Of a DNA stretch of 64,000 bases, positions 26,265 to 60,215 are shown one piece after another. The stretch is from an uncultured Candidatus Saccharibacteria bacterium. GTDB lineage: Bacteria > Patescibacteriota > Saccharimonadia > Saccharimonadales > CAZWFS01. How positions within the stretch are numbered: position 1 is the stretch's first letter; the number at the start of each line of letters is the position of its first letter. The position numbers were made by a program, and so were the translations under genes. The notes beneath the pieces were generated by a model that was not told the DNA's origin, made no database searches, and was given only the letters and a program-made list of their open reading frames with translations. Where the stretch lies: positions 3,063 to 67,062 of the forward strand of contig CAZWFS010000001.1 of the NCBI GenBank assembly GCA_964633325.1, in the 5' to 3' direction.

Positions 26265-26270
26265 ACTAAC

Positions 26271-26762
26271 TTAGCTCTCATCTTTCATTAACAGTATTGG
26301 CGGGTCAAAAAAGCTCATTTCATCTTTATCGGGTGGCTGTAGCTGGCTGGCAGATTTCTCAAGTCGTTCACGTGTTAGTGGTGCGTCAAGCTCTGTTTCT
26401 TTTTTATTACGAGTATCAACACGCTGCCATAGTTCCTCAAAAGGTAGCTCTAAATAATGTAACTCAATCCTTAATCCATTAGAATGAGCTTCAAGCCTTA
26501 ACTTATCTCGCTCCTCACGTCCCCAGAAACCATTTTCAAGAACAACATTGCTACCTGACTTCGCTAACTTTAATGCCTTTTTCCATTGTTCGGCTTCAAT
26601 ATCCGCCCTGGCTTTCTCGTCAAAGAAGCTAATGCCACGTTCGTATAGCTCTTGGTCTGGACTCATGACAACTGCTGGCATTTCACTAGCCAGTTTCTTT
26701 GCAAGCGTAGACTTACCAGCACCTGGCAAACCGCATAACAATACTAGAGTTCCTTGTTTCAT
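26271..26762 (-). CDS. small P-loop kinase-like protein (AAA_33/zeta-toxin/phosphotransferase-like)
   Basis: Walker A LLCGLPGAGKSTLAK at the N-terminus, about 160 aa. Confidence 0.5.
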   Translation of the reverse strand: MKQGTLVLLCGLPGAGKSTLAKKLASEMPAVVMSPDQELYERGISFFDEKARADIEAEQWKKALKLAKSGSNVVLENGFWGREERDKLRLEAHSNGLRIELHYLELPFEELWQRVDTRNKKETELDAPLTRERLEKSASQLQPPDKDEMSFFDPPILLMKDES

Positions 26763-28237: not shown

Positions 28238-28448
28238 ATAAACTCCTAACTAAAAAAACCGAGCGTTGGTTAACGAAATATCGCCACACAACTGCTCGGT
28301 CTTTTACAAGGGTTTAACTGATAGAAAAACAATCAAATAGCAAAGCTACACAAAGCTGTGTGAACGACTTTAGCGGTTGATTGTTACTATCATAAGTACG
28401 TTTAACTCCTTTAGATAGCTACATTGTATAACAATTATGTTTATCTTG

Positions 28449-28994
28449 TCAAATTGACAGTTTTATTATCTCGTCTACAACTTTTTCAAGTGGCTGTTCT
28501 GCATTAACAAGCATTGCGCCATAGCTTTTCATTTGTTCGTCAATAGTATTATTCCAACCTAGTATATCTTTTAAGTCATCGGGGTGTTTTCCGTAATCAT
28601 TATTAGTTCTGTCATCAAGACGTTGCTGCAATACTTCATTACTAATTGAAAGGCTTATGACCTTATCAAATAAGTCCCATACATCTTTATCATTTGGAGT
28701 TGTACCGCATAGAAAAAAAGGCTTACCTTTAGTTTTAGCAAGTTCGGCAATTTCTTCTACTTTTGAGCGTTCTACTTTTAACCAATACCGCTTACGCCAC
28801 TCGTTAGTAGTATCCGTCCACCCTTTTTGCTCAGCAGCTTTTTTATCAGTTGAGCGGTTGTACCACACCCTAAAATTATCTTCATCAACATCATAAGCGT
28901 CATATCCACGCCTTTTTAATTCAAGCCGAATGGTTGATTTTCCAGTTCCTGAAATCCCAGTAATGAATATGAGTGGCATAGAGTAATTATACAA
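28449..28994 (-). CDS. small P-loop kinase-like protein
   Basis: Walker A ITGISGTGKST, about 180 aa. Architecture resembles small nucleotide/antibiotic kinase folds. Confidence 0.45.
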   Translation of the reverse strand: MYNYSMPLIFITGISGTGKSTIRLELKRRGYDAYDVDEDNFRVWYNRSTDKKAAEQKGWTDTTNEWRKRYWLKVERSKVEEIAELAKTKGKPFFLCGTTPNDKDVWDLFDKVISLSISNEVLQQRLDDRTNNDYGKHPDDLKDILGWNNTIDEQMKSYGAMLVNAEQPLEKVVDEIIKLSI

Positions 28995-29154
28995 AATTAT
29001 ATGCTCTGGAATAGTTGCTGTTTAAGGCACATACAGGCGTTTTAACGTGAGTTTATGGCAAACCTGCGGAATTGTAGGGAAACGGACTTTTCGTACAGCA
29101 AATCTGCAAAAAACAAAGAGAAAACACTGCGTTTTCAAATAATCTGTCAGAAAA

Positions 29155-29625
29155 CTATTGTCCTTGCTTATGTGGCGCATTCTTACCGTTAAAACCAGGT
29201 TGCACAGCAATTCTAGCTTTCCATTCTGCGTTATCAAGCACTGATACTGGTTCGGCGTTGTGTAGCTCCCGAAAGTCTTCACGAGCTGCTTTAATGACAC
29301 TACTAATTACTAAAGCACTGGGATAGAAATGTGGTGTTAGCAGTATTTGGGTCTTACTGCCAATATGCTGTTTGTCTAATACCTGGTAATAAAGGTGTGA
29401 AGGAAATATATACAATCCTTGTTGCTTGTAGTCCCCGTCTTCTATTCCGAAGTCTTTACCGATATTTGTTATAAATATAAATCTAACGTTGCAGTTACTA
29501 AGCAAACCACCACGCAAGGTTGAAGCCGTTACAGGATTAAGAGCGTGTACCCAATCGTTTAGCACATACCTTTCCAGCAGCCGTCCATTGGCTTCTATGT
29601 CGGCGTAAAGGAAATTAAAAGTCAT
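29155..29625 (-). CDS. hypothetical protein; its start overlaps the upstream HTH gene's stop
   Basis: ORF overlaps the upstream HTH gene by 11 nt, suggesting an operon; no motif. Confidence 0.3.
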   Translation of the reverse strand: MTFNFLYADIEANGRLLERYVLNDWVHALNPVTASTLRGGLLSNCNVRFIFITNIGKDFGIEDGDYKQQGLYIFPSHLYYQVLDKQHIGSKTQILLTPHFYPSALVISSVIKAAREDFRELHNAEPVSVLDNAEWKARIAVQPGFNGKNAPHKQGQ

Positions 29626-29857
29626 AAGCCACTACTTCACCTAACTTTGAAAGGTATAAAAGATTTGTGCGAGCATTATTTATCTTTTCAGCGAAGACCT
29701 TTTCATTACGAAAATGTCGGTAAAAAGTGTCCCTGCTGATACCAGCATAAGCGCAAGCTTCCGAAATACTTGAGCCGTGCTGCAAAGCGTCTTCCAGCTT
29801 GCTCATTACGGTGTAATTAACTTTGGCGGGTCTGCCGTTAGCTTTTTTATTTGTCAT
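29615..29857 (-). CDS. small helix-turn-helix DNA-binding protein
   Basis: GSSISEACAYAGISRDTFYRHF is a typical HTH of transposase-OrfA or terminase-small-subunit type. Confidence 0.45.
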   Translation of the reverse strand: MTNKKANGRPAKVNYTVMSKLEDALQHGSSISEACAYAGISRDTFYRHFRNEKVFAEKINNARTNLLYLSKLGEVVAYDF

Positions 29858-29985
29858 AAAACTCCTGTTTGTTTTTGTTTAAGGCTCTCTATTTATTATG
29901 ACAAAAATAGCACTTTAGTTATCTGACATTAGTAGAAATATAGCTACAGTGAGTATTTACCTGTCTGTCCGTATAAAATAGGACT

Positions 29986-30753
29986 ATGAAGAAGTCCGAA
30001 CTACAAAAATTGGTTGATGAACTTTTTGCTCAAGATTATCAAGGAGCAAGCCAATCTTACTCACGACCTGTTCTTTGGCCGACAGATTACAATAAAATCA
30101 TTGAAACCGCTCGCAAGAAACTAGGAATAACCAGTAAGGCACTTATGATTATTGGTAAGAACCAGGGCATATTGAGCCGTAAAGACGGAGTTATTGGCGC
30201 AAAGGATTACTACCCAATAGCCGAGGACAAGTATCTTGAGTTGGTTATCGCTCATATAAAAAGTAGCTCTAAGGCTAAGACTGATGTTCAAGCAAAGGAG
30301 CACTTTTATTCAGTGGTTGATGAAGTCCTTGGGCGAACTGGACTATCGGAAGAATGGCGGGAGTATGTAGCGGTATTCATCGTAACTAATATGCCACCAA
30401 GTAAAAACTTTCCAGCACCTTACCCATTCATTACTGTCCAAGATACTGATGACGATTCTGTAACTATCAAAATCCACAGAGGCATACGATATGAAGAATA
30501 TATTACGGCGTGGGCTGCTCTAGCCGAGTTTCTAGGACTAGGCAGACGTAAGGCTAAAAAACTTAGCGAGAAAACAGCAGCAATCCATGCTCAAATGTAT
30601 GGCAAGCGAGAGTTCTACGGACTTACGTACAGACAATTAGCAGAGGAGTACGGCATTGAACGCCTTACCGTTGATGACGCAAAGGACTACGTTAAGAAAG
30701 TCATTAAAAGACAAAAGAAACTGCGCAATGGGGGGACAGATTTAACTAAGTGA
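29986..30753 (+). CDS. hypothetical protein; first gene of the integrative element
   Basis: ORF only. Confidence 0.35.
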   Translation: MKKSELQKLVDELFAQDYQGASQSYSRPVLWPTDYNKIIETARKKLGITSKALMIIGKNQGILSRKDGVIGAKDYYPIAEDKYLELVIAHIKSSSKAKTDVQAKEHFYSVVDEVLGRTGLSEEWREYVAVFIVTNMPPSKNFPAPYPFITVQDTDDDSVTIKIHRGIRYEEYITAWAALAEFLGLGRRKAKKLSEKTAAIHAQMYGKREFYGLTYRQLAEEYGIERLTVDDAKDYVKKVIKRQKKLRNGGTDLTK

Positions 30754-30881
30754 TTTGCGTCTCCTTATAAATTATTGCATAGCATGTACGATAGTAATGT
30801 GATGATTTAAGGAACCGTTCTAGGACAAATATAAACGTCATCACATCTAGTGCGGTTCCCATTTCAGAAGGGGGTTCCATC

Positions 30882-31850
30882 ATGGACCCAATTAAAAAAA
30901 TAGACGAGCTTATGGGGCAGCATTTCCCAGAGCAGGAATACATTGTGGACAGGCTTGTGCCTGACGGTTCAATAACAATCCTGTCGGGTGCGTCAGGCTC
31001 GTTCAAGACCTACTCACTACTACAAATCGCAATAGCGGTGGCGAGTGGTAAACCGCTCTTTGAGCAGTACCAAACACAGCAAACAGGCGTACTCATCATA
31101 GATGAGGAAAACGGTGAACGCCTAATGCAGAAACGGCTGTACCAGCTCGGTGCAACAGCAGATTTGCCAATCTACTTTACGCCAAGAATGGGCTTTGAGC
31201 TGACAGAAGAAAATATAGATAACGTGCTGTTATCGTGCCTAACATACGACTTGAAGCTAGTTGTTATAGACAGCTTAATCCGTGTGCATAGCGCAGACGA
31301 AAACAGTGCCAGAGAAATGGCAAAAGTCTTTAAGCTACTACGTAAGTTTACAGAACAAGGCGTAGCGGTATTGGTAACACAGCATAACCGCAAGCCTGGC
31401 GCAAACGGTGGCGGAGCTGGCAATGAAATGCGTGGCTCAACCGATATACGGGCAGCCATAGATAGCCACATAGGCGTTACTCGCAAGAATAAGTGGTACC
31501 TAACCTTTGACCAAACCAAGCAACGCTACGATGTGGAACTTGACCCGTTCAAAGTTAAGGTGAATGCCGATAAAGACAGCTTCACCTTTGAGTACCTCGG
31601 CACTCTTACGGCGGAAGCTAACACGGCAGAACAGCTATACAAAGCGGTTACTGACCTGCTGGCGGAACATGAGCAACTTTCACAGAAAGAGCTGCTGGCA
31701 AAGCTTGCAGATACCGAAGCTAAGACTAACGAGCATACCTTGCGGGAACTGCTTAAACAGTGGGTTGCAGAAGGTGTGTTACCTCAGCCAAAACCAGGTG
31801 TTGGTAAGACTAAGTACTACCACCTTGAAGCAGAGGTTAGTAATGAGTAA
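30882..31850 (+). CDS. RecA-like AAA ATPase (AAA_25/RepA-type, replicative helicase-loader-like)
   Basis: Walker A SGASGSFKTY and Walker B LVVIDSLIRVH. Typical of plasmid and phage replication ATPases. Confidence 0.55.
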   Translation: MDPIKKIDELMGQHFPEQEYIVDRLVPDGSITILSGASGSFKTYSLLQIAIAVASGKPLFEQYQTQQTGVLIIDEENGERLMQKRLYQLGATADLPIYFTPRMGFELTEENIDNVLLSCLTYDLKLVVIDSLIRVHSADENSAREMAKVFKLLRKFTEQGVAVLVTQHNRKPGANGGGAGNEMRGSTDIRAAIDSHIGVTRKNKWYLTFDQTKQRYDVELDPFKVKVNADKDSFTFEYLGTLTAEANTAEQLYKAVTDLLAEHEQLSQKELLAKLADTEAKTNEHTLRELLKQWVAEGVLPQPKPGVGKTKYYHLEAEVSNE

Positions 31851-32067
31851 GCCAGAACCGAAAAACCGAGCTACTAATAGTAGTGCTAGCTTACTCGGTT
31901 CCGACAACCCACTACATGAAATGTACGAGCGTCCATTAACTAAGGCAGACGAAGAACAGATGATGTTCAACCTCGTCAACTTTGTAGAAACGCTGATAGC
32001 AATGGACAAGCAACACAAACAATGGAAAGAAAACAAGCAAGTAACTAAGGAGCAAGAAAATGAATAA
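31843..32067 (+). CDS. small hypothetical protein; ATGAGTAA start/stop overlap with the upstream gene
   Basis: In-frame ATG overlapping the upstream stop and preceded by GAGG. The longer track ORF 31564.. lies antisense and out of frame inside the upstream gene. Confidence 0.3.
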   Translation: MSKPEPKNRATNSSASLLGSDNPLHEMYERPLTKADEEQMMFNLVNFVETLIAMDKQHKQWKENKQVTKEQENE

Positions 32068-32512
32068 GCAAGACAAGGCAACAGAAAAGTTAATGGAAAA
32101 TATATGTACCGCAGTAGCCGAGTATCACAGCAAGGCAATGTCGGACCACGTAAAGACAGCAATGCAGCAACTAGCCAAAGCTGGATATGCGCTAAGGCGC
32201 CCACCTTTTGGTTACTCAACCACAGAAACTAGCGGATTGTTCCGCATAAACCGTATAGGCATGGCTATGCGTGTAGCAATGCAGGAAGCAGCCAACGGTG
32301 AGGTTTCTAGCGAGGAGTTTAAGCTACGGCTTTCTATCCTCTTTAGCGGTGAATCACTGGATATACGTAGTAAGGCTAGTCTAAAACGAATAGTTTCAAA
32401 TCCGTACTATATCGGCTTAATACGTTGTGGCAATGAGCTGTATAAGGGCTTGCACGAGCCACTGATTACGGCAGAGGAGCAGCAGAAGCTAATAGAGATA
32501 TTGGAAGCATAG
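32060..32512 (+). CDS. recombinase-domain-only protein (serine recombinase fragment lacking the catalytic resolvase domain and zinc ribbon)
   Basis: RRPPFGY and NPYYIGLIRCGNELYKG match the recombinase-domain motifs seen in the three full-length serine recombinases in this window (NPFYVG, NPYYCG, NRYYMG). Confidence 0.5.
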   Translation: MNKQDKATEKLMENICTAVAEYHSKAMSDHVKTAMQQLAKAGYALRRPPFGYSTTETSGLFRINRIGMAMRVAMQEAANGEVSSEEFKLRLSILFSGESLDIRSKASLKRIVSNPYYIGLIRCGNELYKGLHEPLITAEEQQKLIEILEA

Positions 32513-32590
32513 CCACTTGGGGGAGTTTATCTCCCCCTTGCTGGTAGCAATTACCAGAGGTACATCATAAAATATAAGTAGGAAACAATA

Positions 32591-34093
32591 ATGAATTATT
32601 TAATAGCACGGGTATCAGACCAAGACCAAAAGAAAGCCTTACCAGCGCAAAAGAAACGACTTGAAGACTACGCCAAGAGCTTAGACTGGATTGAGGATAA
32701 AGATTACAAATATATTGAGTTTGACGAAACAGCGTTCAAAGATAATCGCAAACGATTTAACGAACTAGTTCTAGCACCAATAGTAAATGCAATAGATAAA
32801 TCCATAATAGTCCACGATAAAGTGGACAGATTCACGAGGGATTCTTCATCAGAAGAAAAATCTATCCTTACCAGGCTTGCTAAACAAGACAAGATTGAAC
32901 TGCACTTTCCGCACGACCACCTTATTATTAACTCTGAATCAGCAGCAACGGCACATTTCCAGTTTGATATAAATGTAGCTTTAGCTAGCTACTATTCAGG
33001 GGCTATTCGGGACAATGTTAAACGCCGATTTGACCAAATGCTAGATGACGGTATCTGGATTGGACGTGCGCCAATAGGCTACGTTAATTATCAAGAACAC
33101 GACGCTAACGGCAAAGTTATTTTTAAGGGCATACGTTTGGACTTAGAGCGTGACTACCACGTCAGGAAAGGCTTTGAGTTGCGCTCCACTGGGCTGTCCT
33201 ACAAAGCTATTGCCAAAGAAATGAAGAAAGCTGGTCTGCGTAGCCGTACTGAAAAAGCCGTAGTAATCAGTGCAGCGCAGTGGGAAGAAATACTTAACAA
33301 TCCGTTTTATGTAGGCAGAATGGTGTTTAAGGGTAAAGAGTATGACCATAACTATGACACTATTGTAGAGCCTTGGCTCTGGGACAAAGTACAGGAAGTC
33401 AAAAACAGACGGGCTAATGGCAAAACCAAGTACAACAGTAAGCCATTCCTGTTTAAGAACTTAAAGTGCCACGTCTGCGGGTATTCAATAACCTTTGACG
33501 GACCTAAGCACAATGGCAAGACTTACGGGAAGTGTACCGAGTATGGTGGCAAGCACGGCGCAGTATGGGTAAATGAAGAAATACTTATTGAGCAAGTGCG
33601 TGAGCTGCTAAGAGCCATTCAGCTTCCTAAACGTCTGTTACCTAAATTAGTTGCTGAAATAGATAAGAACCACGCTAGTGAGCAAGACCGCTATGTTACT
33701 ACTAGAACTCGCTTAGAAAAAGAATATAACGCCCTGGACGAAGAACTAGAGGACTTATTTAAAGACCGCAAGCAGTTCAAAACCCGCCACGAGCTGTTTG
33801 AGCGAATGGTTAAAAAGATTGAAAAGCGTCAGAAAGATATTATGGAAGACCTGAAAGACCACAGTGCTGGCGATAAGGCGTTTGTTATCGGCGCAAGCTA
33901 CTTATTAGATGTATGTAGTCGTGCAGTTGAGTTGTTTGACGCTGAAAGTACGAAAGTGGAGCAAAAACGGTACCTAATAGAGTTCATACTTACGTACATA
34001 ACTTTGGACGGCGAAAAGCTGCATTTAACACTTAAGGAACCGTTTGAAGCGGTCATTTCATTGGCAAAAACTGGGAAATGGTACACCCGATAG
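32591..34093 (+). CDS. large serine recombinase (integrase)
   Basis: N-terminal catalytic motif LIARVSDQDQ, recombinase domain (GYVNY...NNPFYVGRMVFKG), Cys-rich zinc ribbon (CHVCGYS...CTEYGG) and a C-terminal coiled coil. Confidence 0.8.
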   Translation: MNYLIARVSDQDQKKALPAQKKRLEDYAKSLDWIEDKDYKYIEFDETAFKDNRKRFNELVLAPIVNAIDKSIIVHDKVDRFTRDSSSEEKSILTRLAKQDKIELHFPHDHLIINSESAATAHFQFDINVALASYYSGAIRDNVKRRFDQMLDDGIWIGRAPIGYVNYQEHDANGKVIFKGIRLDLERDYHVRKGFELRSTGLSYKAIAKEMKKAGLRSRTEKAVVISAAQWEEILNNPFYVGRMVFKGKEYDHNYDTIVEPWLWDKVQEVKNRRANGKTKYNSKPFLFKNLKCHVCGYSITFDGPKHNGKTYGKCTEYGGKHGAVWVNEEILIEQVRELLRAIQLPKRLLPKLVAEIDKNHASEQDRYVTTRTRLEKEYNALDEELEDLFKDRKQFKTRHELFERMVKKIEKRQKDIMEDLKDHSAGDKAFVIGASYLLDVCSRAVELFDAESTKVEQKRYLIEFILTYITLDGEKLHLTLKEPFEAVISLAKTGKWYTR

Positions 34094-34155
34094 GATTCGA
34101 ACCTACGACCTTTGGCTCCGCAAGCCAACGCTCTATCCAGCTGAGCTACGGGTGC
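34079..34155 (-). tRNA. tRNA-Arg (anticodon read as GCG; unusual and to be verified) with encoded CCA; overlaps the recombinase stop codon
   Basis: The reverse complement reads GCACCCG-TA-GCTC-AGCTGGATA-GAGC-G-TTGGC-TTGCGGA-GCCAA-AGGTC-GTAGG-TTCGAAT-CCTAT-CGGGTGT-A-CCA. The cloverleaf has a G1:U72 pair. Confidence 0.55.
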
Positions 34156-34288
34156 TCGAAAATATGATATAGAACAGAGGTGAGTTTACCATATTGTCTC
34201 AGGAAAGCCTATGGTTGCTAGAGATTTGGGTGAAATGGCAAAAAGTTCGAATTCACTTCGCGCTTTTTGGTTCCGTTTGTGGGAGGAG

Positions 34289-34354
34289 AGCAGCCAGAGA
34301 AAATGTATTCCATTTTCCCTGCGCTATGAGAGGAGGAGTCACCTCCTCTCATGG
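34289..34354. repeat. conserved twin-hairpin intergenic element, copy 2
   Basis: Near-identical to 6254-6317. It is preceded by a degenerate copy of the same TTCAC-loop terminator hairpin and lies immediately 3' of minus-strand gene 34357..34953. Confidence 0.5.
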
Positions 34355-34356
34355 TT

Positions 34357-34953
34357 TTAGAAGCGGACGCGGCGCATTAGGCGTTCCAGGGGATCCTGGC
34401 TACGCTGTTCTACTGGTAGGGCGGCGGAAAGCACGCGCACTATTTTATCCTCGTCCGCTGGATCGTAATAGATACTTATAGATGTCATAAACCTCTTCAG
34501 TGGCAATAACAGGATGGATCTTATGACGCCCTCTTCGAGTATGGCAAAAGATTTAAGCTCGCCGTAGCCGTAAAATTTTGGGCCAATTTGTACACCCGAC
34601 GAATTAACGGAGTACTCCAGTACCCGAGGCGTACGGGCAGCCATAACGCCGAAGACAGCGCCGACCACCACGATCATCCCAGCCGAAATCCGGTCGCCTT
34701 GGGTAAAGAAATATACAATTATAGCGGCAACAGCCGTGGCCAGACCAAGCATTACGAACCAACCAGTGGACTTGTGATGCGCTACATACTCTGAAGCAGT
34801 CCATGATACAGGCTCTATAGGCTGGATAGAATTAGCCGGCGCTTCCGGTGCCGTCTGGCCGGACGCATCCTCGGACTTGAATTGCCATCCGGGCGCTTCT
34901 TGGTCGGTTTTAGTCTCTTCCGTACCTGCGTATCCTGGCTGATCATCGTCCAT
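34357..34953 (-). CDS. hypothetical membrane protein
   Basis: Acidic N-terminus followed by two TM helices; no motif. Confidence 0.4.
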   Translation of the reverse strand: MDDDQPGYAGTEETKTDQEAPGWQFKSEDASGQTAPEAPANSIQPIEPVSWTASEYVAHHKSTGWFVMLGLATAVAAIIVYFFTQGDRISAGMIVVVGAVFGVMAARTPRVLEYSVNSSGVQIGPKFYGYGELKSFAILEEGVIRSILLLPLKRFMTSISIYYDPADEDKIVRVLSAALPVEQRSQDPLERLMRRVRF

Positions 34954-34995
34954 AAGCGTTATTGTACATTAGCGGGTAACTTTAACAAACGGCGG

Positions 34996-35088
34996 GAACC
35001 GAACGTGGCGGAGAGGGAGGGATTCGAACCCTCGCGGGGGATTGCTCCCCCCTATCGATTTAGCAAACCGACCCCTTCAGCCTCTTGG
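34996..35088 (-). tRNA. tRNA-Ser (anticodon GCU) with a long variable arm and encoded CCA
   Basis: The reverse complement reads GGAGAGG...TCGGT-TTGCTAA-ATCGA-(19-nt variable arm)-GAGGG-TTCGAAT-CCCTC-CCTCTCC-G-CCA. Confidence 0.75.
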
Positions 35089-35494
35089 GTACCTCTCCTT
35101 GCGCCAGACTCGGCCATTATAACAAACGCGGAGGAATACGGGCCTGGAATTTTTAGGGGCCCTCCGACTTTATAATTACTCGCTCAGGATTTTTCGGTCT
35201 CCTGGCCCGCCATACACTTGTCAAATGGCGGGACATTCGGGTCTGGAACCTTTCACCCTGTTTCTGTCCCTATACAGTCTAGCGGATAAAATGGGACACA
35301 ACCAGACTAGTTTGTGCCATTTTTGTAAAATCTCATCTGAAAATGAGACAAATGGAACAAGCGTCTCATTAAAAGACGTGTCCCATTCTATGAGGTAACT
35401 TGACTACAATCATAAGTTATGACATAGCAAGCATAACTACACGCTTATGTTAGTATAGAAGCGAAATAGTCCGTGAATCCTTGCGAGAGACGGA

Positions 35495-50505: not shown

Positions 50506-50561
50506 TCGATTGACGGAAATTAAGACTAAACTCCTAGACTTCCCACCCCTTCGCGGTACCT

Positions 50562-51935
50562 TTGTCCTTGATGAATCAACAAGGAACACAACTAACCAAT
50601 ACCTCAGCTCTCCAGTTGCCACATGAAAAAAACGGGAGGCCTGTCGATAGTATAGCCGTCAAAGCAAAACGAGTTGAATACTGCCTCTATGCCCGAAAAT
50701 CCAGCGAAGATGATGAACGCCAAGCCCTTTCCATTGATTCACAGATCAAAGAAATGGCAGTTCAGGTCGAAAGCCAGGGACTACGGGTTACAGAGATCCG
50801 GAAAGAGAGTCACTCTGCCAAACAATCTGGACAAAGACCAGTGTTTCAACAATTGATTGAGGATGTTCGCAAAGGACTATTCACTGGCATATTGAGCTGG
50901 GCACCAGATCGCCTAAGCAGAAATGCCGGTGACTTGGGCTCAGTCGTAGACCTTATGGATCAAGGTAAGTTAGTTGAGATCAGAACTCACGGCCAGGTAT
51001 TCACCAACTCACCCAACGACAAGTTTCTGCTAATGATTCTATGTTCCCAGGCCAAACTTGAGAACGACAACAGAGGCATCAACGTTAAAAGAGGCATGAA
51101 AACCAAGTGTGAACTGGGCTTTCGGCCTAATATGACACCACTCGGTTACCTTAACGACCATTACTCCGGCAAAGGTCAAAAGAAGGTGTTCGTAGATAAG
51201 AAGCGAGCACCAATTATCAAAGAGGCCTTTGAAAAGGTGGCTACCGGTGCTAGCGGACGCGATATTTATAACTGGATGAAAGAAATCAACTATAGGACTA
51301 AGAGCGGCAAGTTAATGACACTGAGTGGTGTTTACCGTATGCTCAATAACCCATATTACTGCGGTATCTTCGAATTCCCGACCGGCAGTGGCAAATGGTA
51401 CAAAGGATCGTATACGTCGATTATCTCTAGAGAATTATTTGATGCGGTTCAAAAGAAGATGGAAGTGAACCCAAAAAGTAAGCCAGGAACCAAGCAATTT
51501 GACTATACCAAATTGCTTAAATGTGGTGGCTGTGGCTCCGGCGTCACGGCGCAGGAGAAATTCAAAAAACGCAAAGACGGTACTGCTAAACGTTACGTTT
51601 ATTACCACTGTACTCAATCGCGAGACTTTGACTGCCCGCAAGGCTATATCCGGGAAGAAAAACTGGCCGAGGCCTTCGTCAACATGCTGGAGAAAGTAAC
51701 AGTTGAAGAAATTGAAAGCAAGGAAGCCCTGAGGGCTGAACTTGATAGATTCAGGCGTTTATCGTCTGCAGTACTGGGATACAGTAACAATCCAGAGCAA
51801 CCGGAGATTAATCTGCATAACTTTGCTAAATACGTGCTTACAGAAGGAACAAGAGCCGAAAAACGTGAATTGATCTCATGTCTTGATCAAACGATTTATC
51901 TTAAAGATAGACAAGTGCACACAACTCTGAGCTAG
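50562..51935 (+). CDS. large serine recombinase; true start uncertain
   Basis: Catalytic motif YARKSSEDDERQ, recombinase domain (NNPYYCGIFEF), zinc ribbon (CGGCGS...YYHC) and a C-terminal coiled coil. The track ORF starts at a TTG and places the catalytic Ser unusually far from the N-terminus (about aa 49). Confidence 0.75.
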   Translation: MSLMNQQGTQLTNTSALQLPHEKNGRPVDSIAVKAKRVEYCLYARKSSEDDERQALSIDSQIKEMAVQVESQGLRVTEIRKESHSAKQSGQRPVFQQLIEDVRKGLFTGILSWAPDRLSRNAGDLGSVVDLMDQGKLVEIRTHGQVFTNSPNDKFLLMILCSQAKLENDNRGINVKRGMKTKCELGFRPNMTPLGYLNDHYSGKGQKKVFVDKKRAPIIKEAFEKVATGASGRDIYNWMKEINYRTKSGKLMTLSGVYRMLNNPYYCGIFEFPTGSGKWYKGSYTSIISRELFDAVQKKMEVNPKSKPGTKQFDYTKLLKCGGCGSGVTAQEKFKKRKDGTAKRYVYYHCTQSRDFDCPQGYIREEKLAEAFVNMLEKVTVEEIESKEALRAELDRFRRLSSAVLGYSNNPEQPEINLHNFAKYVLTEGTRAEKRELISCLDQTIYLKDRQVHTTLS

Positions 51936-52013
51936 GAAACCGTAAGCTTGCAGAATAACTTGCTTATTGGATAGCTATATTTTTATCTGTTGTTCCCCTA
52001 TACTGAAGGAGCT

Positions 52014-55000
52014 ATGGGAAGTGTTACTGCACACCAGGATCAGAATCGTTTACTAGAAGTGGAGCCTACTAAGCTCCACAGTACAAAAGTTACTCTGCCT
52101 CTACGTCTAATCGACAGCGTAAAAGTTGGCAAGAATCGAGCCAATCAAATTTACCAAGACGAAGAATTAGTTGACGTTGATGTTTATGATGAGGGGGATA
52201 AGCTCTTAAAGTTAAAATCAGAAAAAGAAGAGTTTATTCTTAAGCTACCGGGAGCCAGAGCAACCATCACTAATAAAAATGTGTTAAGAATTGCAAACTA
52301 CACAGATGCAAAATCTATAAATCAAGATAGCAAATTAACTTGGGAGGACTTTCAGGGCTCCGAGGCACCAAACAGTACTAATGGAGTGAAAGAATCTTGG
52401 CTTCATTCCTTTAATTTTAAGGAAGAATATCCAGCAAAGAATATACCTGGTCTTAGAAAACCCCAAGCGGGCGCAATACACTCTGTAGCCGCTCATTGGT
52501 CTGTGAAAAACGACTGCGCCACAATTGTAATGCCTACTGGTATAGGGAAAACTGAAACGATGCTTTCGGTTATGGTTCATCAACAATGTGAAAAGATTCT
52601 TGTTCTTGTACCCACCAGTGCGCTTAGGAAACAAATATATAACAAATTCTTAACGCTAGGTAAGTTGAAGAAACTTGGGGTTGTTGAGCAGAAAGCACTG
52701 AGCCCCCGTGTATTAATGATTGAGCACACCATTGAAAATGTGGCTGAAGCAAAAGAAGTATTAAAAAACGCCAACGTTATTGTAGCTACTGTAAGTGTCC
52801 TAAATCGCTCAAGTGATACCGTCAAACAAGTAATATCTGAGGGATGCTCTCATTTGTTTATAGATGAAGCGCACCATGTACCTGCCAATAGTTGGAGTGC
52901 CATAAAAGACCTTTTTGAGAACAAATATATCTTGCAATTTACTGCTACACCGTTTAGGCGAGACTCAAAAGTAATTGAGGGGGATATCATATACAACTAC
53001 CCCCTAGGAATGGCGCAGAATGACGGCTACTTTAAGAAGATTAACTTATTGAAGCTTCAGGAGTTTGATGACGCGAAGTCAGACGAAGAAATAGCCAAAG
53101 CGGCAATAGGAGCACTTGAGAATGATCTAAACGGCCCAATAAAACTTGATCATATGATTATGGCTAGGTGTAAGGATAAGGATCGAGCTCGTGATATAAT
53201 CCGACATTACAAAAAACACGGTACAACATACAACCCGGTTCTTATTGATTCTGAATTGACCAGTAAACAATATAGAGAAATCGAGGAGAAGCTAAAGAAC
53301 GGCGAAACTAGGATTATTGTCTGTGTAAATATGCTTGGTGAAGGTTTTGATCTGCCTAATCTCAAAATAGCTGCCCTACATGATGTCCATAAGAGCCTTG
53401 CGATCACCCTCCAATTCATAGGTCGTTTTACAAGAGAAGCTAAGGATGTTGGTGACGCTACCGTTGTAGTGAATGTGAATGATCCCCAAGTTAATAAGGA
53501 CTTGGAGGGTCTATATTCTGAAAACCCAGATTGGAATGAAATCTTAAAGCAAAAAAGTGAATCTACCATAGAGCACGAAATAGAATCCCATGAGTTTATA
53601 AAAGAATTTTCAGGGGAGCTTTCAAAGCACATTTCTCTTTGGAATTTACGCCCATCATTCTCAACGCTAATTTATGAAACTAAGTGTCAAGACTGGAACC
53701 CCAAAAAGTTCGAGGAGGTAATGCCCAAGCGATACAAATACTGGCATGCAATAAACCAAAAAGAGAAAATACTGGTTGTAGTTATTAGCAAAGAAGATGA
53801 GGTAAATTGGGGCCGCTATAAGGACATTCATAATCACAGCTTTGAACTTTGTGTGGTGCATTGGAGCGAAGAGCATAAAGCGTTGTTTATACAATCTAGT
53901 GACTACGATGCAATTAACCCGGCAGGTTTATCAAGAGCTATTTGTGGAGAAGATACCAAAATCAAAAATGGGTCTAATGTATTCAACATATATTCAGGCG
54001 TGGAGCGCATTCTTGCTCGTAATCTCGGCATCTCGACTGTTGGGAATAATATATCCTACACAATGCACTTTGGTAGTGACATTACTCAAGGCCTCTCAAA
54101 ATTAGATAAGTCTTTAGGGGTTCTGAACAACATTTCGGCTTGGGGTTTTGAGGGCGGTGATCGTTTTATGGCAGGCTGCTCGGAAAGAAGTGGCAAAATT
54201 TGGTCTATCGGTGGTGGTCCTATGATGCTTTGGAAAAGTTGGTGTCATAAGGTGGCCGACAAAGTTTTTGATGAAACTATTGAGGCGAATAAGGTAATCG
54301 AAGAATTTCTTCGCCCCGTCCAGCTCGAAAAGAGGCACAAATCCGTACCTCTGTTGATCGAATGGAGTGAAAGGATTCTTAAGGCAAAAGAGGACAATAT
54401 AACTGTCTTGTTCGGTAAAGAAGAGTTTAAAATTTATGACGTAGAAATAGAGATTACTAATTTTTCTGATTCAGGTCCTGTTCACTTCCGAGTATTTAAT
54501 GATACCCATGAAACAAAATACAAAATAGATTACTCAAAAACGGACTGCAAATACTCCATTGTCAGTGGCAACGATATGAGTATTAAAAAGTACAGTGCAC
54601 AGCCTGTTCCGTTTATGGACTACGTTTTGAGAGACCCGGTTGTCGTTATATACGTGGACGGGTCTTTCTCATACAACAATTATCACGTACCTACACCGCC
54701 ACTAAACCAATTTTATGACAAAGAGCGTTTGCAGGTTGTTGATTGGCAAAAGACAAATATACGGGTGGAGTCAATGAAAAAAGAAAGAAAAACCGATAGT
54801 ATTCAACACAAAGTGTGGCAAATGCTTAATGATGAATATGAAGTCGTCTTTAACGATGACGATTCAGGAGAAGCTGCCGATCTAATCGCCATAAGGCAGG
54901 AGTCTACTGACACAATAAAGTTGCACCTAGTTCACTGTAAATTTTCATCAAAGCCAAACACTGGGTCTAGAATAGGAGATTTTTATGCTCTCTGTGGACA

Positions 55001-55304
55001 GGCGCAAAAATCAATCAAGTGGAAGCATAATGGGCTCGATTATCTTTGTGAACACATGAAGCATCGTAATGAGGCATGGGAAAAGACAAAGAACAGCAGA
55101 TTTTTAAAGGGCAGCGTGGTTGATTTAAATAAGTTAAAAAAATTCTCAAGATTTGCGACAAACTTTGTATTCGAAGTTACAGTCGTACAGCCCGGGTTAT
55201 CAAAGGCAAAAATATCTGATGACGTCATTCAGCTTTTAGGTAGCACGGAGGACTATTTACTAAAGACTTCCAATGCCAGCTTTAATGTGTTTTGTTCAAA
55301 GTAG
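52014..55304 (+). CDS. large SF2 (DEAH/ResIII-type) helicase with an about 600-aa uncharacterised C-terminal region (possible nuclease); candidate defence protein
   Basis: Helicase motif I MPTGIGKT, Ia LVLVPTSAL, II FIDEAHH, III TATPFR and VI QFIGRFTR. The C-terminal half has no recognised domain except a possible D...(E/H)xK-like segment (EAADLIAIRQES...LHLVHCKF). The start was moved to the ATG at 52014, which has a GAAGGAG RBS. Confidence 0.7.
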   Translation: MGSVTAHQDQNRLLEVEPTKLHSTKVTLPLRLIDSVKVGKNRANQIYQDEELVDVDVYDEGDKLLKLKSEKEEFILKLPGARATITNKNVLRIANYTDAKSINQDSKLTWEDFQGSEAPNSTNGVKESWLHSFNFKEEYPAKNIPGLRKPQAGAIHSVAAHWSVKNDCATIVMPTGIGKTETMLSVMVHQQCEKILVLVPTSALRKQIYNKFLTLGKLKKLGVVEQKALSPRVLMIEHTIENVAEAKEVLKNANVIVATVSVLNRSSDTVKQVISEGCSHLFIDEAHHVPANSWSAIKDLFENKYILQFTATPFRRDSKVIEGDIIYNYPLGMAQNDGYFKKINLLKLQEFDDAKSDEEIAKAAIGALENDLNGPIKLDHMIMARCKDKDRARDIIRHYKKHGTTYNPVLIDSELTSKQYREIEEKLKNGETRIIVCVNMLGEGFDLPNLKIAALHDVHKSLAITLQFIGRFTREAKDVGDATVVVNVNDPQVNKDLEGLYSENPDWNEILKQKSESTIEHEIESHEFIKEFSGELSKHISLWNLRPSFSTLIYETKCQDWNPKKFEEVMPKRYKYWHAINQKEKILVVVISKEDEVNWGRYKDIHNHSFELCVVHWSEEHKALFIQSSDYDAINPAGLSRAICGEDTKIKNGSNVFNIYSGVERILARNLGISTVGNNISYTMHFGSDITQGLSKLDKSLGVLNNISAWGFEGGDRFMAGCSERSGKIWSIGGGPMMLWKSWCHKVADKVFDETIEANKVIEEFLRPVQLEKRHKSVPLLIEWSERILKAKEDNITVLFGKEEFKIYDVEIEITNFSDSGPVHFRVFNDTHETKYKIDYSKTDCKYSIVSGNDMSIKKYSAQPVPFMDYVLRDPVVVIYVDGSFSYNNYHVPTPPLNQFYDKERLQVVDWQKTNIRVESMKKERKTDSIQHKVWQMLNDEYEVVFNDDDSGEAADLIAIRQESTDTIKLHLVHCKFSSKPNTGSRIGDFYALCGQAQKSIKWKHNGLDYLCEHMKHRNEAWEKTKNSRFLKGSVVDLNKLKKFSRFATNFVFEVTVVQPGLSKAKISDDVIQLLGSTEDYLLKTSNASFNVFCSK

Positions 55305-55784
55305 TTTGGGGGATAAGTTCACAATTACTCCCGGGTGCACGCGTAGGTCCGGTGAGAATTCTTATGTTCTTGGAGTTTAAAGGACAATACGTTCAAGGGT
55401 GTACGTAGTTAGTGTAGATGCATTCTTTTCGTTGCGTTCTGGCATCCACGGCGCATCTCTTGAACCTTTTACCCAAAGTGCAAGAAATACTGGGTTTGTA
55501 GTTTTGTGTACATCCGGGGTGACGGAAAGAATCTATGCTTTTTACGCCAGACTTTTACCATAGCCACAATAATCGCAATGTAGACCAAACCATTCTAGAA
55601 CCAAAATTCATTTAAAAGTTCCAGAAAATCAGGGCTTTAAGGAGTAATTGGCGAGTTCCAGTCCCAGGTGGGGTCAAGCTAAATCAAGCACTTAAGACAA
55701 ATAGAAGACCCCTCGCGGGGTTTTCCTTCCTCTTTGATTGTTCTTGTCCTTTCACTGACCCCTGTAAAAGTTCCACTTTCTATC

Positions 55785-55876
55785 TGGCGGAAGGGGTGGG
55801 ATTCGAACCCACGGACCCGTTGCCGGGTCTCCGGTTTTCAAGACCGGTGCACTCGACCAGACTATGCGACCCTTCC
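55785..55876 (-). tRNA. tRNA-Ser (anticodon UGA) with a long variable arm and encoded CCA
   Basis: The reverse complement reads GGAAGGG...CCGGT-CTTGAAA-ACCGG...GTGGG-TTCGAAT-CCCAC-CCCTTCC-G-CCA. Confidence 0.75.
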
Positions 55877-57573: not shown

Positions 57574-57990
57574 TTAGCTGGTTGTTTGGGTGGCCTTGGC
57601 CAGTACGAAGCGAACGATGAACTGGGCTAGCGCTACCACTATTAAACCTACAATGGCATAGAGTATGGTGTTCTTTGCGCCGGTGACATTGCCGGAATCA
57701 CCACCGGAGGTAATGTATTTGAGCCCTCCTACGATTATCATTATGACAGCGACCACACCTACTATCAGCGAAAACACGTTTACGATTAGTTTAATGATGC
57801 TGTCCAGCCTTGATGTGGCTGTAGCATCATCGGGTTCACACTCTGCTCCGGGAGATAGGGTTAAGTCAGCCCCACACTGGACCTTCTTGCCCAGCTCTTG
57901 AGCATAAACAGTTGCCGGGAGTACCGCGGGAGCCGCGAAAAGCCCAAACGCCATAGCGCTTAATAAAAATCTTTTAATTGCTGTAATCAT
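57574..57990 (-). CDS. VirB2/TrbC-like pilin-family protein, paralog A
   Basis: Signal peptide, a Cys pair in the exposed region and a core of two hydrophobic helices joined by GGLKYITSGGDSGN. The C-terminus ALAQFIVRFVLAKAT is shared with paralog B. Confidence 0.55.
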   Translation of the reverse strand: MITAIKRFLLSAMAFGLFAAPAVLPATVYAQELGKKVQCGADLTLSPGAECEPDDATATSRLDSIIKLIVNVFSLIVGVVAVIMIIVGGLKYITSGGDSGNVTGAKNTILYAIVGLIVVALAQFIVRFVLAKATQTTS

Positions 57991-58137
57991 TTTTAGTTAT
58001 ACCTTTCTTTGATATAGCCTTACTTATATCATAAACTTTTTACTTTATTCAAGTGCTCGGGCATGTAGACGGATATAGATGTCCGAATAAGAAGGCTTAA
58101 TTATTAATTGCCGGGGCCTTTTACCGCCCCTATCTTA

Positions 58138-58536
58138 CTACGTGGCCTTAGCTAACACGAAACGAACTATAAACTGGGCTAATGCAACAACGACCAGGCC
58201 GATTACTGCATAAAGCAACGTTGACCGCGCAGCGTTTATATTACTACTTTCTCCGCCGGAAATGATGAACTTAAGACCTGACACGATAATCATGATGATT
58301 GCCGCTATGCCGACAACCAGCGAAAAGATGTCAATAGCCGCCTTGACCACCGTACTGACCCTTACCCTGGAAGTGTCGCTGCCGCAAGCCTCGCTGGAAC
58401 CTATATTCACTCCGGCGCATATATCGTCAACTGCAGCGGCTTGGACGGCTGCAGGAACTAGAAATGCACCTACCAACAGCATCAGCACCACTAATGACGC
58501 TAGCCTGCCCCTAAGTGCATAAATCGCTTCCTTCAT
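58138..58536 (-). CDS. VirB2/TrbC-like pilin-family protein, paralog B
   Basis: Same architecture as paralog A; IMIIVSGLKFIISGGESSN core. Confidence 0.55.
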   Translation of the reverse strand: MKEAIYALRGRLASLVVLMLLVGAFLVPAAVQAAAVDDICAGVNIGSSEACGSDTSRVRVSTVVKAAIDIFSLVVGIAAIIMIIVSGLKFIISGGESSNINAARSTLLYAVIGLVVVALAQFIVRFVLAKAT

Positions 58537-58550
58537 AAAATTAACTCCGT

Positions 58551-58979
58551 TTATAGTTTATTAAGTACGAATATTACGATGGATTGGGCCAACGCCGCCA
58601 CCACTAGGCCGATTACCGCGAACAGCACGCTGTCACGCGCGCTATTGACTTTGTTTATATCGCCGCTGGCAGTCACGAAACGGATAGCGCCGATTATAAT
58701 GACGAACAGCGCTACAACCCCGACTACCATAGATAAAATATTAGCTATTTTAGTCAGGATGCCATTAGGCCCATAAAGTTTATTACTGCCAGGTTCTTGT
58801 GGGGTATTATCCTTGCATATAGTGGCGCTCGGAGTAGACTGGCAGACCGGGTCTAAGACCTGGGCCCTAACGGCTTGGGTGCCTGATAGCGCAAAAGCCA
58901 ACGTCATTATAGCCATAAGCAACAAGCTCCGTAACCTTTTAGGTGCCCACACATTAAGCATTTGCAAAATATGGGTCAT
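58551..58979 (-). CDS. VirB2/TrbC-like pilin-family protein, paralog C
   Basis: Signal peptide, Cys pair and FVIIIGAIRFVTASGDINK core. Confidence 0.5.
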   Translation of the reverse strand: MTHILQMLNVWAPKRLRSLLLMAIMTLAFALSGTQAVRAQVLDPVCQSTPSATICKDNTPQEPGSNKLYGPNGILTKIANILSMVVGVVALFVIIIGAIRFVTASGDINKVNSARDSVLFAVIGLVVAALAQSIVIFVLNKL

Positions 58980-59275
58980 TACGATACACCCCTTAGTACC
59001 AAGCTTACGATACTGAAAGCCAGGACAGAAATCGCCAGGCCTACGGCCGCGTAGATTATGGAGTTACGGGCTTTGGCTGTTTGGCTTGAATCGCCCAAGG
59101 CAACGGAGAATTTAATCCCTTGGATAATAAGGATGATAAGTGTACCTGCCCCAATAAGCCCGAACACTATCTGCAGGATGCCCCGAAGGCTAGCATCGGT
59201 AAAATCCGGCTGCGGAAGTTTTACATCTTGACGCGGTACATTCACCTGGGCAAGATAAGATAAAAGCTTCGTCAT
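58979..59275 (-). CDS. VirB2/TrbC-like pilin-family protein, paralog D (short)
   Basis: LIILIIQGIKFSVALGDSSQ core; no long N-terminal region. Confidence 0.45.
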   Translation of the reverse strand: MTKLLSYLAQVNVPRQDVKLPQPDFTDASLRGILQIVFGLIGAGTLIILIIQGIKFSVALGDSSQTAKARNSIIYAAVGLAISVLAFSIVSLVLRGVS

Positions 59276-59661
59276 ATAAGGCTCCCCGCTACAAGGTTGA
59301 CAATTACGGTGGCTGAAGCAGCTATGGCTAGGCCAATCAGGGCATTGATTATAGTGTTCAGAGCCTTCTTTGCGTTATCAGGTTCACCTTGGCTTAGGAT
59401 GTATTTGATGCCGCCAAATATGACGAACGCAACAGCTACCATACCCCCAAGTCGCAATAATATTTCCGCTAGTGCTAGCAGAATTTTGCCTATATCGTCC
59501 GGAAAATTAATAATAGGCGAGCATTTGCCAGCTATGGATTCTTCCCCCAAATACTTATACCAGGTAGGAAACATTTTGAAGGCCTTCGGATCACCGCAAG
59601 CCGCAAACTGTGTGAGTATATCCCAGCCAACCATTAGAATATGCCCCCTGGCACCAACCAT
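59272..59661 (-). CDS. VirB2/TrbC-like pilin-family protein, paralog E
   Basis: Cys pair and FVIFGGIKYILSQGEPDNAKK core. Confidence 0.45.
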   Translation of the reverse strand: MVGARGHILMVGWDILTQFAACGDPKAFKMFPTWYKYLGEESIAGKCSPIINFPDDIGKILLALAEILLRLGGMVAVAFVIFGGIKYILSQGEPDNAKKALNTIINALIGLAIAASATVIVNLVAGSLI

Positions 59662-60215
59662 TGCAGAAAGGCAAAGGTGAAAATGTATGCAATAAGGGCT
59701 ATGACGGCATTGCCAATACGTTTTTGGGCGGCTTGCGCTGTCTGCGGGTTATCTGCCGAAGCCGAGTACTGGATACCACCGATAATGATCATGATGACAA
59801 CAGTAATTCCCACAATCGCCGACAGGGCCCTGATGAAAATTACCAGGTATCTGATAATACCGCAGTTACTTTGGTCTAGACCCACAGAACTGCAGTCATT
59901 TTTAACGTATTTTGGAGTGTCGGTTGTCTTCGTGGGGTTATAGCTATGGCTAGTGTCGGGACAGGTTGTGCCAGGAGCTAGTGTTCCGGGCGGGCCGCCT
60001 GGGCAGCCTGCTGGGATCACTGGGCACACCACACCAGGAGCGCGCGGCCCAGCTGGACCACCGGGGCAGCCGGCTGGGATAGTTTGGGCGCCTACAAACA
60101 ATGCAGAGCTAGAAAAGATAATGAAGCCGGACAGAGCCGCCGTGGCAAGCACGGCGATCCTTATTGGAAATGATTTCTTTTTGTGAGACATATCTGATGC
60201 CGATTTTACAAACAT
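59634..60215 (-). CDS. VirB2/TrbC-like pilin-family protein, paralog F, with a collagen-like Cys/Pro/Gly repeat region
   Basis: Signal peptide, repeats PAGCPGGPAGPRAPGVVCP/PAGCPGGPPGTLAPGTTCP and a conserved core VIMIIIGGIQYSASADNPQ. Confidence 0.5.
   Translation of the reverse strand: MFVKSASDMSHKKKSFPIRIAVLATAALSGFIIFSSSALFVGAQTIPAGCPGGPAGPRAPGVVCPVIPAGCPGGPPGTLAPGTTCPDTSHSYNPTKTTDTPKYVKNDCSSVGLDQSNCGIIRYLVIFIRALSAIVGITVVIMIIIGGIQYSASADNPQTAQAAQKRIGNAVIALIAYIFTFAFLQWLVPGGIF
59990..60090. repeat. tandem direct DNA repeat inside the paralog F coding region
   Basis: ccgggcgggccgcctgggcagcctgctgggatcactgg... is repeated as ccagctggaccaccggggcagccggctgggat...; it encodes the PAGCPGGP peptide repeats. 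Confidence 0.5.

Follow-up and report, generated by a model that had tools for sequence, protein, structure and literature searches.

A single gene in an uncultured Candidatus Saccharibacteria bacterium encodes a 1,104-residue protein in which an XPB-like superfamily 2 (SF2) helicase motor is followed by a predicted C-terminal PD-(D/E)xK nuclease, and we think that this helicase-nuclease is probably a stand-alone defence enzyme. The gene lies between a large serine recombinase (LSR) gene and a tRNA-Ser(UGA) gene on contig CAZWFS010000001.1 (assembly GCA_964633325.1), in a stretch of 64,000 nucleotides that was analysed as a whole and is called the window below. The protein keeps intact ATPase and nuclease motifs and belongs to a large family of full-length proteins that carries no name; its gene is accessory at its own locus, and homologues recur in defence and mobile islands. 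A first-pass annotation of the window had read the region as a candidate defence island made up of a serine recombinase, an SF2 helicase of about 1,100 residues and a tRNA-Ser(UGA). All three are found where it placed them; its observation is confirmed, and its interpretation is supported in part.

Domain layout of the helicase-nuclease

The exact sequence of the helicase protein is not on record. With the alternative start ATG 52014, which follows a GAAGGAG, the protein would have 1,096 aa, and conservation among homologues starts near aa 27. AlphaFold2 modelled the full-length protein from a 90-sequence alignment with a mean predicted local distance difference test (pLDDT) score of 89.0 and a predicted template modelling (pTM) score of 0.74. 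The model has seven parts, which include the domains listed here, a long helix (aa 515-538) after the RecA-like domains and a later linker.

aa 28-120 (52071..52349, plus strand): N-terminal all-beta domain; eight strands, pLDDT 78-94, no family match
aa ~150-510 (52437..53519, plus strand): SF2 motor, XPB/RadD/SauUSI-like by Pfam, PDB phmmer and Foldseek
aa ~556-760 (53655..54269, plus strand): tandem alpha/beta module (units 556-652 and 662-760), from the model
aa ~787-900 (54348..54689, plus strand): second all-beta domain, from secondary structure, pLDDT ~90
aa ~938-1104 (54801..55301, plus strand): predicted C-terminal PD-(D/E)xK nuclease domain, from the placement of D964 and H982-C-K984

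Pfam places the helicase core at aa 155-482, with matches to ResIII (PF04851, 1.5e-27), DEAD (3.6e-15) and Helicase_C (PF00271, 3.5e-11). The DEAH/ResIII motif set recognised in the first reading is complete: MPTGIGKT (aa 181-188), DEAHH (aa 292-296), TATP (aa 318-321) and QFIGRFTR (aa 475-482) are invariant or nearly so among 90-112 homologues. Walker A with the sequence GxGKT, the DEAH box, motif III, motif VI and two RecA-like domains are all present, as in SF2 proteins of the ResIII/XPB-like type, and the ATPase is, judged by its sequence, a motor of the double-stranded DNA translocase type. The closest solved chains in a phmmer search of PDB sequences were XPBII (2.4e-10) and SauUSI (7clg, 5.2e-9); Foldseek matched the motor to XPB (1e-14), RadD (8.8e-14), Mfd, SauUSI (2.8e-12), LlaBIII (4.5e-12) and EcoP15I Res (3.9e-11). 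The architecture as a whole is without a solved counterpart (best query-normalised template modelling score 0.26 with Foldseek). A Pfam match to SWI2_SNF2 (4.2e-9) reflects the generic ATPase only. PADLOC v2 returned no full-length model match, and its partial matches lie in the helicase part: mREase_IV (2.9e-11, helicase part only), HamB (2.5e-6, aa 175-294) and typeIV_DinG (aa 154-228).

The first-pass annotation had recognised nothing in the C-terminal 600 residues, and the searches bear this out. Residues 520-1104 of the window protein have no Pfam, NCBIfam, PADLOC or PHROG family match, none of the 20 diverse members of alignment A1 (the window protein and 19 homologues) has a Pfam match in this half, and a profile search of PDB sequences returned nothing meaningful. 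Modelled on its own from a 20-sequence alignment, the C-terminal half has a pLDDT of 76.6, and the predicted structure combines a tandem alpha/beta module with a fold of the PD-(D/E)xK nuclease type. The tandem module resembles CENP-N/Chl4, Iml3, RdgC and TBP-like proteins and is presumed to bind DNA; within it, aa 666-760 form the most conserved non-catalytic stretch of the protein, with many invariant Gly and Trp residues. The N-terminal beta domain may likewise be a DNA-binding or sensor domain.

The C-terminal domain can be placed in the PD-(D/E)xK superfamily, and the hint of a D...(E/H)xK segment in the first reading was well founded. Among the same 90-112 homologues D956, E961, D964 and K984 do not vary, and D957 and H982 reach at least 90% conservation. 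In the model D964 opens strand beta2 and H982-C-K984 closes strand beta3, paired in a hairpin with the beginning of beta2, which is the canonical geometry; because the residues occupy these positions, we assign the triad to a D...HxK variant. Q1004 and K1012 are also conserved and lie, together with D956, D957 and E961, around the catalytic residues. The comparison list for the nuclease domain runs from N.BspD6I (9.3), CdiA-CT EC869 (8.8), FokI (8.6), R.BspD6I (8.2) and HamA (7.7) through Shedu SduA (7.4), NucS (7.0), Upx (6.7), LlaBIII (6.5) and Hna (6.1), with Can2, MspJI, NucC and McrC further down. As modelled, the domain most resembles the domains with which type IIS enzymes (FokI, BspD6I) cleave DNA non-specifically, and its motifs are intact. 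No methyltransferase or specificity gene lies within ~5 kb of the helicase gene, which agrees with the earlier statement that a Mod or HsdM/S partner is lacking and supports the picture of a stand-alone helicase with a C-terminal nuclease.

Family distribution and genomic contexts

Full-length homologues of ~1,075-1,095 aa with 40-64% identity occur in Candidate Phyla Radiation (CPR) bacteria, Omnitrophota, Planctomycetes, gamma-proteobacteria and Geomonas, where they are annotated only as 'DEAD/DEAH box helicase'. A profile of the C-terminal half matched 664 family representatives (50% identity clusters) at E<=1e-30 and 1,374 at 1e-10. In full-length representatives (~1,000-1,100 aa) this match starts ~500 aa from the N-terminus; shorter hits are apparently fragments. 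Conservation extends over the entire protein, at 35-45% identity, in hosts that range from CPR bacteria to proteobacteria and Firmicutes. Its occurrence is sporadic. The gene is carried by 16 of 5,426 complete E. coli genomes (0.3%; the E. coli homologue is WP_028132769) and a family member is found in 73 plasmid records, from Klebsiella, Acinetobacter, Rhizobium, Bacillus and others, with matches extending to Streptomyces and Halorussus. From phage genomes the family is essentially absent.

Two sets of records stand apart. The sole near full-length 'phage' homologues (31% identity, annotated UvrB) come from the Acinetobacter phage MD-2021a records H41 and H42, which at 328-379 kb may not be true phage genomes. 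Another protein, P0043, has 808 aa and is 61% identical over 68% of the query; a NUDIX domain (PF00293, from a precomputed Pfam list) replaces its N-terminal helicase lobe, through a swap of domains or else a gene call that is chimeric.

The suggestion that the gene belongs to a defence island is upheld by the company that its homologues keep. Eleven independent contexts were examined:

CPR bacteria (L001/L002): PycTM, S24 peptidase, LSR, type III-like restriction-modification (RM) system
CPR bacterium (L003): LSR directly upstream, HsdR, type IV secretion system (T4SS) genes
Methylomicrobium (L004): hsdR-rmuC-hsdM-hsdS-[gene]-AAA_15/21-YjiT-YjiV
Anaerohalosphaera: PDDEXK_13, transposase, type I RM, GmrSD
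E. coli plasmid: CdiI, SymE, insertion sequence (IS) elements
E. coli chromosome (A19): tRNA-Phe integrase island, with the gene after hsdR and hsdM pseudogene fragments
E. coli, tRNA-Leu island: gene 13 bp past hsdS
Acinetobacter plasmid: gamma-mobile-trio (GMT) island, SIR2, DUF3800
Vibrio plasmid (L066): hsdRMS and DUF3696, with the gene after these
Bradyrhizobium plasmid: TIR protein, DUF3800, RelE
Bacillus plasmid: Gabija-like ATPase and helicase pair, integrase

Druantia-like genes are also among the neighbours. In proteobacteria (the E. coli chromosomes L032 and L033, L004 and L066) the gene repeatedly stands 12-15 bp past hsdS in a type I RM operon, and proteobacterial copies adjoin symE or yjiT/yjiV-like genes. 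One E. coli strain has an intact copy beside hsdR and hsdM pseudogenes. No conserved neighbour gene was found across the 11 contexts. Proteins of ~417 aa encoded downstream in E. coli and at a CPR locus were considered as a conserved partner and rejected, being unrelated to each other and without a significant Pfam match. Residence in varied defence and mobile islands without a conserved neighbour is the signature of a stand-alone defence-island gene.

A cargo gene in an LSR-tRNA-Ser module

At the locus itself the helicase-nuclease gene is variable. The features of the locus are as follows.

50534..50570, plus strand: conserved sequence directly 5' of the recombinase start codon, CTAGACTTCC-N9-GCGGTACCTTTGTCC
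50571..51935, plus strand: LSR gene; the open reading frame (ORF) opens at TTG 50562 (457 aa), and ATG 50571 is the probable start (454 aa)
51936..55594, plus strand: cargo insertion of 3.7 kb, comprising the helicase-nuclease gene and 290 nt of unique non-coding DNA
51990..55304, plus strand: helicase-nuclease gene, 1,104 aa from TTG 51990
55305..55594: cargo-only non-coding DNA, with no homology to relatives and no Rfam match
55595..55784: conserved 190-nt spacer of the LSR-tRNA-Ser module, 72-74% identical to L058-L064 (alignment A4)
55785..55876, minus strand: tRNA-Ser(UGA), found by ARAGORN and by Rfam (tRNA, 58.4 bits), its 3' end towards the helicase and recombinase genes

Loci with homologues of the recombinase fall into three groups (L058-L060, L061-L063 and L064), and in every locus the LSR is followed after ~210-220 bp by an opposite-strand tRNA-Ser. 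The anticodon is tga in L058-L060, gct in L061-L063 and gga in L064; the LSR thus adjoins a tRNA-Ser in 4/4 locus types, with anticodons UGA, GCU and GGA. Window blocks 50534-51916 and 55593-55844 are 72-79% identical to the relatives' loci, the left homology starting at 50534 or 50549, and in the relatives (L058-L060, L061/L063, L064) the two blocks are only ~52 bp apart. The helicase gene is missing at the homologous locus in all three groups, L058-L060 among them, which keep the window's right-hand order of tRNA-Ser, ComF-like gene, hsp20 and pilins. Because these relatives have LSR, spacer and tRNA-Ser without the helicase, the gene is a cargo insertion and not a core gene, and its insertion point lies between the LSR stop codon and the 190-nt spacer. 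This comparison through recombinase homologues bears out the earlier view of an accessory gene that varies at the tRNA; the C-terminal half has not turned out to be a housekeeping domain, nor the gene to be core and syntenic. On sequence comparison, then, the locus is a tRNA-Ser-associated LSR module of Saccharimonadales whose window copy has acquired a 3.7-kb one-gene cargo.

Recombinase and helicase are not one unit, since the LSR-spacer-tRNA-Ser module occurs without the helicase. LSRs that adjoin helicase homologues elsewhere are just 26-27% identical to the window LSR, which rules out a single co-inherited LSR-plus-helicase cassette. The AT-richness noted in the first reading is real but modest: the cassette has a G+C content of 0.40 vs 0.464 for the window, at the 4th percentile among 3.66-kb windows. 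Scans anchored on alaS covered 23 genome-contig loci (best 73% identity) and 24 metagenome-contig loci, all alaS relatives being from Saccharimonadales. None of these shares gene order with the window beyond alaS, L057 departing from it immediately past the alaS stop codon; the 20 genome loci scanned for tRNAs contained none, and no empty site, that is, a locus lacking the element, was found among the genome and metagenome loci.

The recombinase has the resolvase catalytic domain (Resolvase PF00239, 3.8e-20), recombinase domain (Recombinase PF07508, 9.4e-16) and zinc beta-ribbon (Zn_ribbon_recom PF13408, 2.6e-10) of an LSR and matches the PHROG integrase family phrog_95 (5.7e-65). Very many close homologues (<=89% identity) are found in Saccharimonadales, forming a subfamily of ~453 aa; as they have 452-454 aa, the start is probably ATG 50571. 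Outside the LSR-tRNA module the flanks vary among loci on one or both sides, and the module is therefore located at mobile-element boundaries or rearrangement breakpoints. From sequence, the subfamily's arrangement of LSR, spacer and tRNA-Ser resembles either a mini-element that targets tRNA-Ser or a hotspot of recombination, and the module may find use in its own right as a compact integrase specific for a tRNA site.

The recurrent adjacency of LSR and tRNA-Ser suggests the tRNA as a putative attachment (att) site, although the crossover site was not located, and no direct repeat of the tRNA-Ser(UGA) 3' end is present elsewhere in the window. In the window alone, positions 50541-50552 repeat 12 nt of the tRNA-Ser 3' end (55790-55801) perfectly and in inverted orientation. 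By our own estimate ~1 exact 12-mer inverted match is expected by chance per 6.2 kb, and the chance of a match linking exactly these two short segments is ~1e-4. All four locus types share the flanks CTAGACTTCC and GCGGTACCTTTGTCC, but in the window alone does the N9 core match the tRNA end; the relatives have another 9-nt core at the position of the repeat. As it is not kept in relatives, the inverted repeat was rejected as a pair of att arms.

The 480-bp non-coding stretch before the tRNA (55305-55784), which the first-pass annotation had thought might hold an att site or a non-coding RNA, is real and of two origins. Only the tRNA-proximal 190 nt (55595-55784) are conserved; the other 290 nt (55305-55594) arrived with the cargo. 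The spacer contains a bidirectional terminator hairpin (55704-55725) and a GTTCCA motif repeated at 55615, 55656 and 55767, and the 25 nt adjoining the tRNA are nearly invariant among LSR-tRNA-Ser loci. It is a reasonable guess that the spacer holds conserved binding sites for the recombinase protein. A non-coding RNA or gene remnant was rejected: Rfam matches nothing in the 480 bp, the folding energy is ordinary (z -0.65), there is no six-frame similarity to the compared loci, and the three compensatory pairs in the spacer all fall inside the terminator, with no covariation outside it.

Beyond the module, the upstream flank holds proS, a small ORF and alaS (named from translations and synteny with the Pfam-labelled locus L058), and the downstream flank, named in the same way, a ComF-like phosphoribosyltransferase gene, hsp20 and T4SS pilin genes. 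At least five paralogous small pilin genes of T4SS/TrbC type form an array at 57574-60215 (minus strand); L058-L060 have a matching array, followed by TrbL, PrgI-like and TraC-like genes. The relatives closest in synteny, L058-L060, have tRNA-Ser(UGA) and tRNA-Ser(GCU) next to each other and divergently oriented, adjoining the ComF-like gene, and in the window the same two genes are 20 kb apart on one strand (35006-35098; 55785-55876), a difference that would fit a rearrangement between tRNA-Ser genes.

A second island bounded by recombinase and tRNA lies at 24450-35098 of the window. Its 500-aa serine recombinase (32591-34093, plus strand) terminates on a tRNA-Arg(gcg) (34079-34155, minus strand), and tRNA-Ser(gct) (35006-35098, minus strand) is close by. 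To the left of this recombinase is a stretch with a G+C content of 0.37-0.42 that encodes two ABC-F-like ATPases, AAA_33/zeta-toxin-like and AAA_18 kinases, an AAA_25 protein and a recombinase fragment. Both islands have the recombinase on the plus strand and the tRNA on the minus strand, but the two recombinases are 32% identical, over one domain only.

Proposed function, alternatives and known systems

Helicase-nuclease fusions are a recurring means of destroying invading DNA and already a familiar defence theme; Hna, Hachiman, Nhi, SauUSI and DdmD each respond to a different trigger. If the window protein is a stand-alone defence enzyme, its accessory domains would bind invading or aberrant DNA, ATP hydrolysis would move the XPB-like motor along double-stranded DNA, and the tethered non-specific nuclease would cut, probably once two enzymes meet or dimerise, as FokI-type domains require. 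By analogy with Hachiman, Hna and Nhi, we lean, tentatively, to the idea that self is spared through sensing of the state of the DNA (ends, gaps, replication intermediates) rather than of modified bases, because full-length conservation at 35-45% across distant hosts argues for a universal cue.

Several points weigh against a defence enzyme of this kind. Defence is deduced solely from genomic context and domain content, and the closest solved relatives of the motor include the repair helicases XPB and RadD. The catalytic triad carries His where Asp or Glu is usual, and when Foldseek compared the C-terminal half with the PDB no hit reached E<=0.001, so the nuclease similarity was not recovered there. 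Since the sensor domains have no assignable fold, the rule that separates self from non-self is a guess. The lack of a full-length PADLOC v2 match suits a new family but gives it no positive support, and literature searches found no description of the helicase-nuclease family, whose existing name, if there is one, may have been missed.

Among the alternatives, an ATP-driven restriction enzyme of type IV kind, dependent on modification as SauUSI and McrBC are, is the likeliest, though we hold it to be unlikely. A beta domain would read 5-methylcytosine (5mC), hydroxymethylcytosine (hmC) or glucosyl-hmC, the motor would translocate and the C-terminal nuclease would cut, and the host would be safe because its own DNA is without the mark. 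The gene does stand alone with no methyltransferase, and its motor matches SauUSI in sequence and fold and the PADLOC mREase_IV model in the helicase part. The E. coli and Methylomicrobium copies beside hsdRMS, symE and yjiT/yjiV also occupy a variable slot that in E. coli K-12 is taken by mcrBC. However, no SRA, EVE, PUA, YTH, DUF3427 or McrB-N match was found by sequence, the PD-(D/E)xK nuclease is C-terminal, unlike the N-terminal phospholipase D (PLD) domain of SauUSI, and full-length conservation over very distant hosts is more easily explained by a universal cue.

A role in DNA repair or recombination, as a fused counterpart of archaeal XPB-Bax1 or a RadD-like enzyme that would serve the replication, repair or maintenance of mobile elements themselves rather than defence, seems to us distinctly improbable. 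XPB and RadD are the closest solved motors, the best partial NCBIfam matches are to RadD, Hef and XPB, and the conserved TATPFR-x-D that follows motif III resembles the RED motif of XPB. Yet the NCBIfam scores are far below cut-off (46 bits vs 720 for RadD), the gene is found in only 0.3% of E. coli genomes and is missing in close relatives at the same locus, and its surroundings are consistently RM and other defence genes, not repair genes. The notion of an accessory subunit of type I RM systems, an alternative R-like motor-nuclease docking on HsdM2S, is very improbable, for although the gene lies on the same strand 12-15 bp past hsdS in E. coli and Methylomicrobium and in an operon-like array in Vibrio, no hsdM or hsdS is nearby in the window, other CPR loci, Bradyrhizobium, Bacillus or Acinetobacter plasmids, the gene is intact beside hsdR and hsdM pseudogenes, and the protein is without HSDR_N and HsdR C-terminal domains by Pfam. 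With no cognate methyltransferase or S subunit near the gene, no HSDR_N and an NCBIfam type I R score of 33.5 (cut-off 550), the earlier statement that this is not a canonical type I or type III enzyme stands.

A stand-alone defence enzyme remains our preferred reading. It is possible, if on the whole doubtful in all its parts, that the family is a widespread unnamed immune enzyme built from an XPB-like motor, a CENP-N/RdgC-like module and a FokI-like nuclease and found from CPR bacteria to E. coli, and that in Saccharibacteria it travels as cargo of an undescribed mini-element whose serine recombinase targets tRNA-Ser of any anticodon. The family spans many phyla and has no name; Pfam does not cover its C-terminal 600 residues, none of its members has a solved structure, and its E. 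coli member makes it easily testable. If it defends, it would add a new combination of motor and sensor and a candidate route by which immunity came to employ XPB-type motors. Few defence systems are recognised in Saccharibacteria, whose genomes are tiny, and a candidate defence gene carried as cargo of a recombinase-tRNA module suggests a route by which small CPR genomes could gain immunity.

Of the known systems, the first-pass annotation had likened the protein to Hna, a single-gene abortive-infection system with a DinG/XPD-like SF2 motor, an Arch domain and phage single-stranded DNA-binding protein (SSB) as trigger (PMC13381803). The likeness holds for the plan, in which one polypeptide, encoded by a single gene of accessory regions, has its SF2 motor N-terminal and its PD-(D/E)xK nuclease C-terminal, but not for the motor, which is XPB/RadD/SauUSI-like; the window protein has only a partial typeIV_DinG match, and no Hna chain is among the PDB sequence hits listed. 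HmaA is likewise a single gene sufficient for defence, a Snf2 helicase with a C-terminal NOV_C/DUF3883 nuclease of the PD-(D/E)xK superfamily, whereas the window protein is without NOV_C/DUF3883 and matches Snf2 at the level of the motor only (PMC11232893). Neither Hna nor HmaA could be retained as the family to which the protein belongs, there being no sequence or profile match to either (PMC13381803; PMC11232893). The GAPS systems of gamma-mobile-trio islands were also rejected as its identity, since the preprint never mentions a helicase. Hachiman divides its functions between two proteins, the HamA/DUF1837 nuclease and the HamB helicase, and the window protein differs in lacking a DUF1837 match, in its weak partial match to HamB and in domain order (PMC12278908).

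SauUSI (7clg) is a stand-alone motor-nuclease without a methyltransferase, and its motor is among the closest solved; its cleavage depends on modified cytosine, and its motor is flanked by a PLD nuclease at the N-terminus and a DUF3427/SRA-like reader at the C-terminus, whereas the window protein matches neither PLD nor DUF3427 and aligns with it over the motor alone. XPB-Bax1 and RadD provide the closest motors by sequence and fold, and XPB has a partner nuclease, but these are core repair factors whose nuclease is separate or absent, whereas the window gene is fused, sporadic, island-borne and equipped with extra domains. Finally, although the window protein has no methyltransferase or target-recognition domain, and none is encoded in its neighbourhood, it shares with the type ISP and type III enzymes (LlaBIII, EcoP15I Res) and with FokI and BspD6I the coupling of a ResIII-type translocase to a non-specific PD-(D/E)xK domain.

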